From IMG/VR virus record IMGVR_UViG_3300016667_000679, positions 1 to 47,511 of that record: DNA of 47,511 nt; one strand, 5' to 3'. Position numbers and translations under genes: made by a program. Below the pieces are notes generated by a model that searched no databases, had not been told where the DNA came from, and worked only from the letters and a program-made list of their open reading frames with translations. This document shows, piece by piece, positions 34,626 through 37,558 of the stretch. This DNA comes from a virus. Lineage: Duplodnaviria > Caudoviricetes. Each line of letters opens with the position of its first letter. Within the stretch, counting starts at the first letter, position 1.

Positions 34626-34788
34626 ACCAGTTACCACCATCTGGTTCCACTATTTCGCTGTGGAGGATTTTAGTAGGAAAGGCGAGTACGAGTCCGCGAT
34701 TTCGAGTCCACGGCGACTCATGCTCCTCATAACACCGTACTCAAGCTATGAGGCGGTGACTAGGTTCCTATCTCCTAGCCACGGACGT
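34626..34788 (-). ncRNA. unannotated structured RNA, copy 1
   Basis: diverged repeat of 37395-37558 with compensatory changes in several stems. Confidence 0.8.
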
Positions 34789-34792
34789 GATT

Positions 34793-34868
34793 TGGTAGAC
34801 CGAGAGGGATTCGAACCCACGACCCGCTGATTAAGAGTCAGCTGCTCTACCAACTGAGCTATCGGTCC
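34793..34868 (-). tRNA. tRNA-Lys(CUU)
   Basis: GCTGA-CT-CTT-AA-TCAGC, CCA. Confidence 0.94.
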
Positions 34869-34874
34869 ATTAAA

Positions 34875-35060
34875 TTAAAAGTCGTCTTCAATAATGCCAA
34901 TCTGACCATTAAAATGAAAACCAGCACCACGAAGCCACTCTTCTACAACATTAAAAACATCATCAAGATTAATTGTTTCTTTAGAGAGAGTTTTTTCTGT
35001 AGAGTAAGACTCTCGGCTGTTTTCGAAGTCCTGAGAATGATAAAGGCGAATCGTATCCAT
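34875..35060 (-). CDS. hypothetical protein
   Basis: GGAG RBS; WLRGAGFHFNG. Confidence 0.65.
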   Translation of the reverse strand: MDTIRLYHSQDFENSRESYSTEKTLSKETINLDDVFNVVEEWLRGAGFHFNGQIGIIEDDF

Positions 35061-35084
35061 AATTTTCTCCATAATTAAAACGAT

Positions 35085-35159
35085 TGGTAGACCGAGAGGG
35101 AATCGAACCCCCAACCTTGACCGTGTAAAGGTCCTGCTCTACCGTTGAGCCATCGGTCT
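35085..35159 (-). tRNA. tRNA-Val(UAC)
   Basis: GACC-TT-TAC-AC-GGTC, CCA. Confidence 0.9.
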
Positions 35160-35166
35160 ATTGGGT

Positions 35167-35243
35167 TGGTAGCGGGAGTGGGAATTGCACACCACGACCT
35201 TTAGTTTATGAGACTAACGAGCTGACTTCTGCTCCATCCCGCT
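35167..35243 (-). tRNA. atypical tRNA-Met(CAU)
   Basis: TTAGT-CT-CAT-AA-ACTAA; acceptor AGCGGGA; non-canonical T loop; CCA. Confidence 0.75.
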
Positions 35244-35250
35244 ATTGAAT

Positions 35251-35327
35251 TGGTCTCGGCGGCAAGACTCGAACTTGCGACCCTCTGCTCCCAAAGCAGA
35301 TGCGCTACCAGGCTGCGCTACGCCGAG
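35251..35327 (-). tRNA. tRNA-Pro(UGG)
   Basis: cloverleaf, TT-TGG-GA loop, CCA. Confidence 0.94.
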
Positions 35328-35332
35328 AAAAT

Positions 35333-35406
35333 TGGAGCTTCGTGTGAGAATCGAACTCACGACCTCTGGTTGGAAGCCAGATACGTTACCTCTACGCCAA
35401 CGAAGC
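35333..35406 (-). tRNA. tRNA-Gly(UCC)
   Basis: cloverleaf, CT-TCC-AA loop, TCCA end. Confidence 0.93.
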
Positions 35407-35412
35407 AATAAC

Positions 35413-35946
35413 TTATTTAGTTACTCGACCTTTATACCAACCTTCTGGTATAAGATCATTTTTTCTTAATTTTTTATTATCAATTCCATTTGTAATCCAG
35501 AAAGAACCATACTGAGAATTACCAGATCCTTGTTGGTGAAGAGAATTCTTTTCTCCTATCTTTCTCTTAGCTTCCTCAGTATGCTTTTTTCCTTTCCAAC
35601 AATCAGGAACTTTCATAATTCCTTCTGCATGAAGTCGTTTGTTTCTAATCTTAGTAGCTTCTCTATTATAAGCTAATTGTCCAGGATTGTCAACTCCATA
35701 TTTCTCTTGCAGAATTTTATTTGTCTTTTTTCTTCCGAGTTTATGCAGTTCTTGCATAACTTCCGCTTTAGAAATAAGACCAGTCAAACCTTGCCAAGCA
35801 ATTCTATCTTGTTCAAACCCATATTTTTCATACAGGTCTCTATGAGCCGCTGCATGTTGCTCAATAGTTAATTCTTTGATATTTGATGGATCATCAGATC
35901 CACCCATATGTCTAGGAATTATATGATGTTTATGCAGCAAACTCAC
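35413..35946 (-). CDS. HNH homing endonuclease with NUMOD-like repeats
   Basis: [19 protein letters not shown]...[18 protein letters not shown]. Confidence 0.88.
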
Positions 35947-35963
35947 AATATTACTCTAAAAAT

Positions 35964-36029
35964 GCACCTTTGTATCTATTCCTTAGAGGAAACGCTCACC
36001 ATACGGTGTCAGTTCGATTAACAAAGGCG
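35964..36029 (-). ncRNA. small three-way-junction RNA candidate
   Basis: GCCUUUGU/ACAAAGGU closing stem with CACC/GGUG and UUCC/GGAA hairpins. Confidence 0.35.
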
Positions 36030-36053
36030 ACTTAACATCAATTAACTTCAATC

Positions 36054-36082
36054 AGTATATATGATTCACATCATGAAGTCAA
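36054..36082 (-). promoter_or_regulatory. sigma70-type promoter
   Basis: TTGACT-17-TATACT. Confidence 0.75.
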
Positions 36083-36291
36083 GCACTATTTTCATCTTCT
36101 TTCAAAGTTTCTTTAGCGGCTCTTACAAGAGCATCATATAAAAACTCAGAGAAAAGTTTCTTTTGTAGTTCTTTATTATTTCTTACAAGAGCAACAACAA
36201 GCTCTTCCATCTCGGCTGGATCAGAATCAAAAATTATTGTCGCTGTTCCATCTTCGTTTTCAATAATTTCTTCAACGATAAGAGATTTCAT
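36079..36291 (-). CDS. hypothetical protein
   Basis: ENEDGTAT motif. Confidence 0.65.
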   Translation of the reverse strand: MKSLIVEEIIENEDGTATIIFDSDPAEMEELVVALVRNNKELQKKLFSEFLYDALVRAAKETLKEDENSA

Positions 36292-36309
36292 AATAAGAAC
36301 CCTTTAAAA

Positions 36310-36385
36310 TGGTGCCGCCACCAAGAGTCGAACTCGGGACCTGATGATTACAAATCAACTGCTCTACCAACTGAGCTATGACGGC
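36310..36385 (-). tRNA. tRNA-Thr(UGU)
   Basis: cloverleaf, TT-TGT-AA loop, CCA. Confidence 0.93.
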
Positions 36386-36390
36386 ATTAA

Positions 36391-36480
36391 TGGCGGAGAG
36401 GGTGGGATTCGAACCCACGGAGGCTTTCATTCCTCGCTAGTTTTCAAGACTAGTTCCTTAAACCGCTCGGACACCTCTCC
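36391..36480 (-). tRNA. tRNA-Ser(UGA)
   Basis: CTAGT-CT-TGA-AA-ACTAG, long variable arm, GCCA. Confidence 0.94.
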
Positions 36481-36644
36481 TATTATTTTCATTCTCTGGA
36501 TATTTATCTCGGTATATACGCGAAGTTTCAAGACAAAGAGACATTACTGCTGCAGCGTTAATTTTAGCAGCAAACAGAACCAGCCGCTTGGCTATTACTG
36601 CAGTAAAATAATCAAATTTAGTCATAACAAACTTCCTTTAAAAT

Positions 36645-36805
36645 TGCTGGGCTACCGTCATACGTTTAAAAGCTCTTTGAACTTCCCTTAGAGTCATCTT
36701 TCAAGCTATTGCGTAGCTTATCCCAGCTAGCTGGTGATGATCATCCTCGGGTGGTGTTCTCCCTCGACGGTCAGGGTCTTGCTATCTTTCGCTCGCAGCC
36801 CAACA
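36645..36805 (-). ncRNA. candidate structured non-coding RNA
   Basis: terminal stem UGUUGGGCUGC/GUAGCCCAGCA; internal UCAUC/GAUGA, CCAGC/GCUGG, AAGCUA/UAGCUU; no ORF. Confidence 0.6.
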
Positions 36806-36809
36806 CTAT

Positions 36810-37202
36810 TTAGCCTCTCCTGCTCTTAGATCCAATGGTCTTGATATCTTCGCCAGGAGTAATCAACTGATATCCACCCTTGTTATAGGCAGGGGCAACC
36901 CGAGCAGCCTTCTTGAGAATCTGCATCTGAACGTCAACTTCCTCGTTCTCTAGATTCTCAAGAATAGTAGCAGTACGGAAACCGTTACCAACCTTGTTCG
37001 ACAGCTGAACGTTTTCCTCTGTCTTGTAGGAAGGAAGATCGATCTTATGCTTGTTCTTCTTAGCAGAAAGCTGTTCAGGATGAAGTCCCATCTTACGCAG
37101 CCACTTGTTATGTTCAAGCTGAGCCTTGGTTGGATCTCGGTCGCGAGTACGCCGATTAAACTTAGTAGTAGTTACCCAAGCTCGTTCAAGATGCATAGTC
37201 AT
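36810..37202 (-). CDS. hypothetical phage protein
   Basis: VAPAYNKGGYQ motif. Confidence 0.75.
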   Translation of the reverse strand: MTMHLERAWVTTTKFNRRTRDRDPTKAQLEHNKWLRKMGLHPEQLSAKKNKHKIDLPSYKTEENVQLSNKVGNGFRTATILENLENEEVDVQMQILKKAARVAPAYNKGGYQLITPGEDIKTIGSKSRRG

Positions 37203-37381
37203 TTGTAGATCCCCACAAACATGAGAAAAAGATAAACAAACATCACTATTATAACGTCAACAATCCTAAATTCAATATCTGGATGTTTATTTTTTATACT
37301 ATCATACCAAAAAAACAAAAAAACAGACCCATAAATCATTACGATTGGATCTATAATAAACGGATTTGTAAATGTTTTCAT
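37199..37381 (-). CDS. small membrane protein
   Basis: two hydrophobic segments; ATGA overlap. Confidence 0.55.
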   Translation of the reverse strand: MKTFTNPFIIDPIVMIYGSVFLFFWYDSIKNKHPDIEFRIVDVIIVMFVYLFLMFVGIYK

Positions 37382-37394
37382 TTTTTCACCGAAA

Positions 37395-37558
37395 ACCAGT
37401 TACCACCATCTGGCGCCAATGTTTCGTCTTGGCGGATTTTAGTAGGGAAGACGAGTGCGCTTTCGTGATTTCAAGTCCACGACGACTTATATCCTCCACA
37501 ACACCGCAGCCATAGCCATGGAGGCGGTAACTGAGATCCCAACCTCAGCTACGGACGT
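37395..37558 (-). ncRNA. unannotated structured RNA, copy 2
   Basis: diverged repeat of 34626-34788 with compensatory changes. Confidence 0.8.

Follow-up and report, generated by a model that had tools for sequence, protein, structure and literature searches.

Among the late RNAs of T4 are RNAC and RNAD, whose function is unknown (PMC9697503). GOLLD and ROOL are likewise encoded by phages and orphan in function; they lie near tRNA islands, contain several pseudoknots, measure ~580 to more than 800 nucleotides (nt) and form cages (PMC12286853, PMC5737381). Here we describe a knotted RNA of 159-165 nt which occurs in two copies, A and B, on the minus strand of a 47,511-nt stretch of viral DNA (IMG/VR record IMGVR_UViG_3300016667_000679, positions 1 to 47,511; hereafter the window). 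This 47.5-kb record encodes the T4-like core genes for clamp loader, sliding clamp and RegA. Judged from its sequence, the knotted RNA resembles known orphans among the RNAs of phage tRNA islands, namely RNA C and RNA D of T4, GOLLD and ROOL, and is a member of none of them. Its placement near phage tRNA islands is of the GOLLD/ROOL type, but it differs from these RNAs in size and helix order and matches no Rfam family model. With T4 RNA C and RNA D (species 1 and 2) it shares the character of a small non-tRNA gene within a T4-like tRNA cluster. The original prediction for this locus had likened its position to that of the two T4 RNAs, which agrees with the location of both copies in a tRNA cluster. 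In contrast to T4 RNA D the knotted RNA does not end in CCA, and no covariance-model match was obtained in the T4 region or the T4 genome. One of four comparisons gave a stretch of copy B (window 37473-37490) with 14 of 16 positions in common with T4 rnaD (L197) around an AGUC/GACU hairpin, at a score which was reached by 26 of 1000 shuffles.

The two copies align end to end, as had been claimed, with 77.8% identity over 167 columns (E 1.8e-28). Their local score was 141, compared with a maximum of 25 among 1096 other stretches of the window, and there is no third copy in the window, where only A and B scored above 5 bits with a covariance model. Helices common to both copies were listed exhaustively. 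In the structural alignment 110 of the 167 columns are paired, corresponding to 55 pairs; between A and B 38 of these are unchanged, 9 compensatory, 4 changed on one side and 3 broken, and 1 contains a gap. For the covariation null, substitutions were re-dealt and helices re-picked in 250 trials per direction. The null mean was 1.2-1.3 compensatory pairs, and the observed 9 were reached in none of the 250 trials in both directions. An unedited MAFFT alignment yielded 5 compensatory pairs against a null of 1.4-1.5, a count reached in 4 and in 1 of 250 trials. As compensatory changes exceed the null, the proposal of a compact pseudoknotted RNA under structural selection held up. The plain folding energy of the copies was unexceptional (z -1.05 and -1.63), which is expected where much of the stability sits in pseudoknots. 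Neither copy matched Rfam 15 at the gathering score or at E up to 10, consistent with the earlier suggestion of an element outside the known families. By alignment and covariation, the two diverged copies are real and members of an RNA family outside Rfam.

The predicted fold comprises, from 5' to 3', stem P1, a 3-nt joint, P2, the H-type pseudoknot P3/P4, a docking strand, an A-rich linker, P5 and P6 (coordinates in Table 1). The docking strand is predicted to pair successively with loop 2 (pseudoknot PK2), loop 5 (PK3) and loop 1 (PK1), and loop 6 may pair with the P1/P2 joint (PK4). Instead of the double pseudoknot of the original prediction, which missed the H-type knot and one loop pairing, up to five pseudoknots are predicted in addition to six hairpin stems. 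All four stems and both loop pairings named before are present in the sequence. However, not every one of these stems covaries between the copies, since P2 shows one inserted C-G pair and two wobble changes and no double-sided change. Of the two loop pairings, that of loop 1 (PK1) has 6 base pairs (bp) in copy A, as in the homolog L175 described below, but only 4 clean ones in copy B.

A hand segmentation of five members showed that every inner column of P1, P3, P4, P5 and P6 pairs. Two-sided changes were found in 5 of 6 columns in P1, 1 of 4 in P3, 4 of 4 in P4, 5 of 5 in P5 and 2 of 4 in P6, and the AGU/ACU core of P3 was invariant. When strands were swapped between lineages, PK2 formed 4-7 Watson-Crick pairs with its own strand versus 2-4 with those of other lineages, and P4 formed 4-5 versus 1-2. 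PK3 comprises 3-4 bp. PK4 also has 3-4 bp, one position of which varies between G-U, A-U and U-A. In a six-row model-fitted alignment, which leans to structure, 97.4% of 151 cells pair compared with 31-45% in slid controls, and two-sided changes occur in 19 of 30 pairs, as in none of 500 shuffles. On this comparative basis, paired changes are shown for P1, P2, P4, P5, P6 and the loop-2 pairing. We discarded a pairing between the P3 region and the 5' ACG or GUCCGU, since this segment is missing from homologs.

Remote homologs were found in other genomes, referred to here by locus numbers (L). A topology-only scan covered loci fetched via neighbouring proteins (~2.4 Mb); L160, which lies in another phage, scored 95, the two copies 105 and 98, and the background reached a maximum of 89. 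Model R1, for which the two window copies were the sole input, matches L160 at 5058-5224 with 21.7 bits (E 2.4e-6 in 55 kb, ~1e-4 when scaled to 2.8 Mb). The global identity of copy A and L160 is 52%, that of shuffles 53%. Model R2 added L131 (100 bits; 91% like L160), L175 (11 bits, truncated by the contig end) and L059/L060 (27-28 bits). The latter (L059 5083-5226, L060 8478-8621) keep the six-stem order and the 3' module, have a second pseudoknot stem of 9-10 bp and shrunken loops 1 and 2, and are counted as a looser relative since most loop pairings are missing. There was no Rfam match for L160, L131 (as L416) or L059.

L160, L131 and L175 begin 2-3 nt past the CCA of a tRNA-His, and L160 and L131 end 11-12 nt ahead of a tRNA-Tyr. 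L059 occupies the gap between tRNA-Asp and tRNA-Pro, and the family starts 0-3 nt past tRNA-His or tRNA-Asp in the homologs. The distance from CCA to P1 is 2-3 nt in L160, L131 and L175 and 10 nt in copy A; no tRNA adjoins copy B. The start of copy A had been placed correctly, as ACGUCC begins 4 nt after the CCA of the tRNA-Lys at 34793-34868. Copy B does follow the other tRNA-Lys with a phosphoesterase gene in between, but overlaps the end of this open reading frame (ORF) rather than lying clear of it. Two further elements of the earlier description did not extend to the homologs. The segment ACGUCCGU, regarded as defining, is missing from L160, L131 and L175, and the RNA follows tRNA-His three times and, in the looser relative, tRNA-Asp, instead of tRNA-Lys(CUU). 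Therefore, the tie to tRNA-Lys and the 5' ACGUCC appear to be local to this phage. As a separate observation, L160 (~4895-4980), L175 (5980-6065) and L131 (~2900-2955) share a non-coding stretch upstream of tRNA-His, without a Rfam match in L160 or L131.

Other searches yielded no further members. Using blastn, no homolog was detected for copies A and B in a phage collection, for copy B in plasmids, or for L160 and the stand-alone 3' module in phages. Three exact patterns had 0 matches in IMG/VR; two loose ones returned 58 and at least 119 loci, the second covering 33 of 64 parts, with no member by covariance model or hidden Markov model (HMM). One metagenome scan gave 3 loci, all within coding sequence, and two GTDB scans gave 0 and 1 chance match. 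R1 with speed filters found nothing in 100 viral records and 20 regions, and these blanks reflect low sensitivity and not absence. Model R3, run over 78 and 50 records with L290 and L255 left out, returned only module-only or weak matches. The candidates L427 and L080-L082 turned out to be tRNA pairs, and L425, L426, L429 and L194 look like noise. Moreover, the topology scan is unspecific in GC-rich DNA: relaxed background scores rose to 144 in coding DNA and to 117 in another scan, and T4-like loci scored up to 133, compared with 135 for L131. No description of the knotted RNA was found in the literature covered, which left out most subscription papers. Nor was the motif found in seven supplementary files of PMC10690425, a portion of the material of a survey with about ten thousand candidates; it may be listed there.

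Besides its place at the end of the knotted RNA, the 3' module (UAAA linker, P5, P6 and GUAA loop) also occurs alone in L058, L381, L384, L389 and L421. In L058 (887-927) it lies across the stop codon of the phosphoesterase gene, the same slot as that of copy B, and in L381 (19166-19212) and L421 (~1500-1560) it has a stop codon on one side and a terminator on the other. In L384 (5643-5684) and L389 (5013-5054) it forms the leader of an apparent hsp20 (small heat-shock) gene, as read from the translation. A module pattern gave 11 distinct matches in 2.8 Mb, 8 of them with the UAAA linker, compared with 0-1 matches and 0 with this linker in 12 shuffles. The 11 include five members that served as the source of the pattern as well as L171, which is probably a chance match. 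No Rfam match was obtained for the stand-alone module. As it stands alone in phage mRNAs, the module is likely to be a protein site.

Close relatives were found in other studies, whose runs are numbered X here. Seventeen runs were listed as carrying the stretch, none of which is an RNA run, and contigs of 5 of the 17 were compared. Copy-B-type sequence is present in four further studies, and copy-A-type contigs were absent from four of the compared runs. The X5, X8 and X9 contigs align from 37396, and X5 and X11 from the copy-A equivalent 34627, the last G of P6; thus contigs of four studies cease aligning sharply at this base. In X11 the flank past the boundary differs and lacks a U run, and another start codon lies downstream of the RNA. 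The different flank and missing U run indicate that P6 is part of the RNA and not a terminator. Compared with copy A, the contigs of X5 and X11 show differences at 17 of 92 bases, a count equal to that of copy B. Within the X8 contig the RNA deviates in no more than 2 of 165 bases, and the adjoining ORF in 5 or more of 62 (Fisher p 0.017). The only change listed within the RNA, at 37525, turns a G-U pair of PK4 into A-U.

To this picture of rewritten stems, few fixed bases and a 3' part reused in mRNAs a stable RNA presenting a protein site would fit. We consider it the leading reading, with a probability of about 40%, that a stable RNA of ~160 bases is cut from a tRNA precursor, knots, and binds a protein in trans as decoy or scaffold. 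It would be transcribed as part of the tRNA operon, starting at the promoter-like sites, and freed from a multi-tRNA precursor, as host nucleases that process tRNAs mature the flanking tRNAs and thereby set the ends of the RNA. Such a release step would rely on RNase P and 3' processing, as is general for tRNAs. Four helical stacks of 8-10 bp each (P1, P2, P3+P4 and P5+P6) would lie side by side, with the single docking strand capping loops 2, 5 and 1 and loop 6 possibly pinning the P1/P2 joint. The compact knot could then serve as a nuclease-resistant, long-lived carrier of the protein site, and the binding face would consist of the fixed bases, namely the P3 AGU/ACU, the UAAA linker and the GUAA loop. 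During infection T4 degrades host RNA including tRNAs (PMC9697503), which would favour a knotted carrier.

Several points weigh against this reading. PK1 is weak in L160 and L131, with 3 and 2 Watson-Crick pairs, and strands of other members pair better there. The PK3 of L131 is no better than that with swapped strands, and the ends of P1 and P2 are in competition with PK4. The stack lengths derive from our own segmentation. The family is small: two lineages contribute four full-length sequences, and a third contributes a single partial one. Copy B lacks an adjacent tRNA and overlaps a stop codon, and its ends would need another route. Decoy action is what we infer, and a single site per RNA makes a poor sponge. 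The position of the stand-alone module at gene ends and before terminators fits a cis role, too. A CsrA sponge, suggested by a GGA in loop 1 of all five members, was dropped, as each copy contains 2-7 GGA and these are mostly paired.

A cis role of this kind, in which the knot stalls exonucleases or steers endonucleases and so fixes or shields the ends of an adjacent tRNA or mRNA segment, is possible, though on balance we do not expect it. The element is always found beside either the 3' end of a tRNA or a stop codon. The stand-alone module covers the phosphoesterase stop in L058 and, in L381 and L421, is bracketed by stop codon and terminator. The H-type knot P3/P4 also resembles the exoribonuclease-resistant RNAs (xrRNAs) of the coremin xrRNA-C and xrRNA-WCC types, with GUC/GAC atop P3, a one-base first loop, which is G in both copies as in xrRNA-WCC, and a short second loop (PMC10520033, PMC10321173). 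In the homologs, however, this loop-1 base is C or U in three cases. The coremin loop consensus as given in PMC10520033, YGAD or YGNNAD, is not present, the loops being GCCGUG and GUCGUG, and no second hairpin follows directly. Compared with the available xrRNA-WCC rules (first-loop G, second stem of 3 bp, hairpin 2 after a spacer), the G is confined to copies A and B, the second stem has 4-5 bp, and P3/P4 is followed by the docking strand and not directly by a hairpin. Moreover, P3/P4 is only one part of a ten-helix fold. About 30-50 nt would suffice as a barrier without ten helices, and between two tRNAs there is little to shield except the element itself. It seems doubtful that the RNA represents a new class of ribozyme or ligand-binding RNA, defined by a four-stack, five-pseudoknot fold in T4-like tRNA operons with a portable GUAA module reused in mRNAs. 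A ribozyme proper, which might for example cleave or ligate RNA close to the tRNA 3' trailer, is unlikely. Dense pseudoknots and few invariant bases are traits of biochemically sophisticated RNAs (PMC5737381), copy B sits behind a phosphoesterase gene, and theta ribozymes are pseudoknotted RNAs directly past phage tRNA 3' ends, with a spacing close to the 2-3 nt between CCA and P1 in three homologs (PMC10879173). Yet the phosphoesterase family is common without the RNA: besides the looser L059/L060, 0 full-length members were found in 80 loci. The 5' single strand is unconserved, and the distance from CCA to P1 varies from 2 to 10 nt. The knotted RNA is about three times longer than theta ribozymes, and its members have neither a nested fold of the hepatitis delta virus (HDV) ribozyme type nor a J4/2 cytosine in common. 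Our own descriptor of the nested double pseudoknot P1-P4 with the catalytic C first in J4/2, which had no ribozyme positive control, gave 0 matches in both copies and strands. A looser version matched copy A and L160 at unrelated places as well as 45 of 1499 tRNA flanks, which is chance level. There is also no hammerhead core and no Rfam ribozyme at E up to 10.

Some of the loop pairings might instead be intermolecular and build a small RNA-only cage or ring. In GOLLD and ROOL, pairings that had been identified from covariation turned out to connect separate chains (PMC12286853), and the genomic setting is the same. Nevertheless, we regard such a multimer as quite improbable: the knotted RNA is four to five times shorter, no self-complementary loop is retained across members, and we infer that equal stacks and short linkers permit all pairings within one chain. 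Competition of PK4 with the ends of P1 and P2 could act as a switch, as in a riboswitch or other 5' leader controlling the downstream gene. This is very improbable in view of the variable downstream neighbours, which comprise a promoter and ligase-domain gene, a 60-aa ORF, the start codon in X11 and tRNAs in L160, L131 and L059. That a promoter-like site begins 10 nt past copy A also makes copy A unlikely as leader of the next gene. Finally, the copies could be relics of a functionless duplication with pairings by chance, which would accord with the modest folding z-scores and with relaxed topology scores of up to 144 in GC-rich coding DNA. The covariation null, the R1 match to L160, the strand-swap and six-row tests and the sharp boundary in other studies stand against it. 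At the level of these comparisons the remote homologs largely refute the relic explanation, which we consider hardly credible.

Table 1. Positions in the window of the knotted RNA, its predicted parts and neighbouring features (A and B, the two copies).
Feature	Position	Strand	Remark
Knotted RNA, copy A	34627..34788	-	4 nt past tRNA-Lys CCA; P1 begins 10 nt past CCA
Knotted RNA, copy B	37396..37558	-	5' part covers last codons and stop of phosphoesterase ORF
P1 hairpin, 9 bp; loop 1 in PK1 (predicted)	A 34756..34782, B 37527-37552	-	3 compensatory pairs between copies
P2 hairpin, 8-9 bp; loop 2 in PK2 (predicted)	A 34726..34752, B 37494-37523	-	Copy comparison and member alignments
H-type pseudoknot P3/P4, 5+5 bp (predicted)	A 34694..34719, B 37463-37488	-	P4 two-sided changes in 4/4 columns
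Docking strand (predicted)	A 34674..34690, B 37443-37459	-	Own-versus-swapped strand control
3' module: UAAA linker, P5, P6 with A-N4-5-GUAA loop (predicted)	A 34627..34673, B 37396-37442	-	Also stand-alone elsewhere
tRNA-Lys(CUU)	34793..34868	-	Immediately upstream of copy A
tRNA-Lys(CUU)	38066..38141	-	Upstream of phosphoesterase and copy B
Calcineurin-like phosphoesterase ORF, 168 aa	37545..38051	-	phrog_547 E 2.3e-48; PF12850 E 4.8e-4, under its cut-off
Sigma-70-like promoter, 11/12	38233..38261	-	Precedes tRNA-Asn, tRNA-Lys, phosphoesterase, copy B; consensus match only
Sigma-70-like promoter, 12/12	35665..35693	-	Precedes tRNA run ending in copy A; consensus match only
Sigma-70-like promoter, 11/12	34588..34616	-	Begins 10 nt past copy A; consensus match only

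The clamp loader of the closest isolate is only 62% shared with the window, and runs containing the stretch bear freshwater or aquatic labels. On the minus strand, 32622-38223 contains 12 tRNA genes detected by ARAGORN and a thirteenth detected by Rfam; copy A is followed by a new promoter-like site and a ligase-domain gene and copy B by a 60-aa ORF. The cluster contains further elements of interest, all on the minus strand. A second uncatalogued structured RNA (36648-36803) has a closing stem, a variable middle and a loop able to pair near the 3' end; homologs occur in L001, L003 and L004 and in the X8 and X9 contigs, and it has no Rfam match. A DUF3800-IX RNA match of 49 bits, over the gathering score, lies inside the tRNA cluster at 35962-36028, and an HNH homing-endonuclease gene (35413-35946) follows directly. 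At 33535-33627 there is a 93-nt tRNA-Ile(UAU) with a long extra segment past the anticodon arm, similar to a 93-nt tRNA-Ile(UAU) in L058, and at 35170-35243 an atypical tRNA with the anticodon CAU by eye, which Rfam detects and ARAGORN misses. A SpoU-type RNA methylase (40078-40635) and a stand-alone NAD-ligase N-terminal domain (34268-34573) flank the tRNA cluster. In L030 and L031, a permuted transfer-messenger RNA (8409-8772) is located after a homolog of a 130-aa gene (window 36810-37202).

In conclusion, the comparisons point to a family of RNAs that is real and apparently undescribed. Its predicted knotted fold is unusually dense, and its 3' module is reusable. Up to five pseudoknots are predicted in 160 bases, and we met no such fold in Rfam or in the literature covered. 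Ever since T4 RNA C and RNA D, the role of genes other than those for tRNAs in phage tRNA islands has been a puzzle. The small size of the knotted RNA and natural variants whose stems are nearly wholly rewritten should make it amenable to biochemistry and structure work, and the 3' module, which stands alone in mRNAs, would offer a direct handle on its partner.

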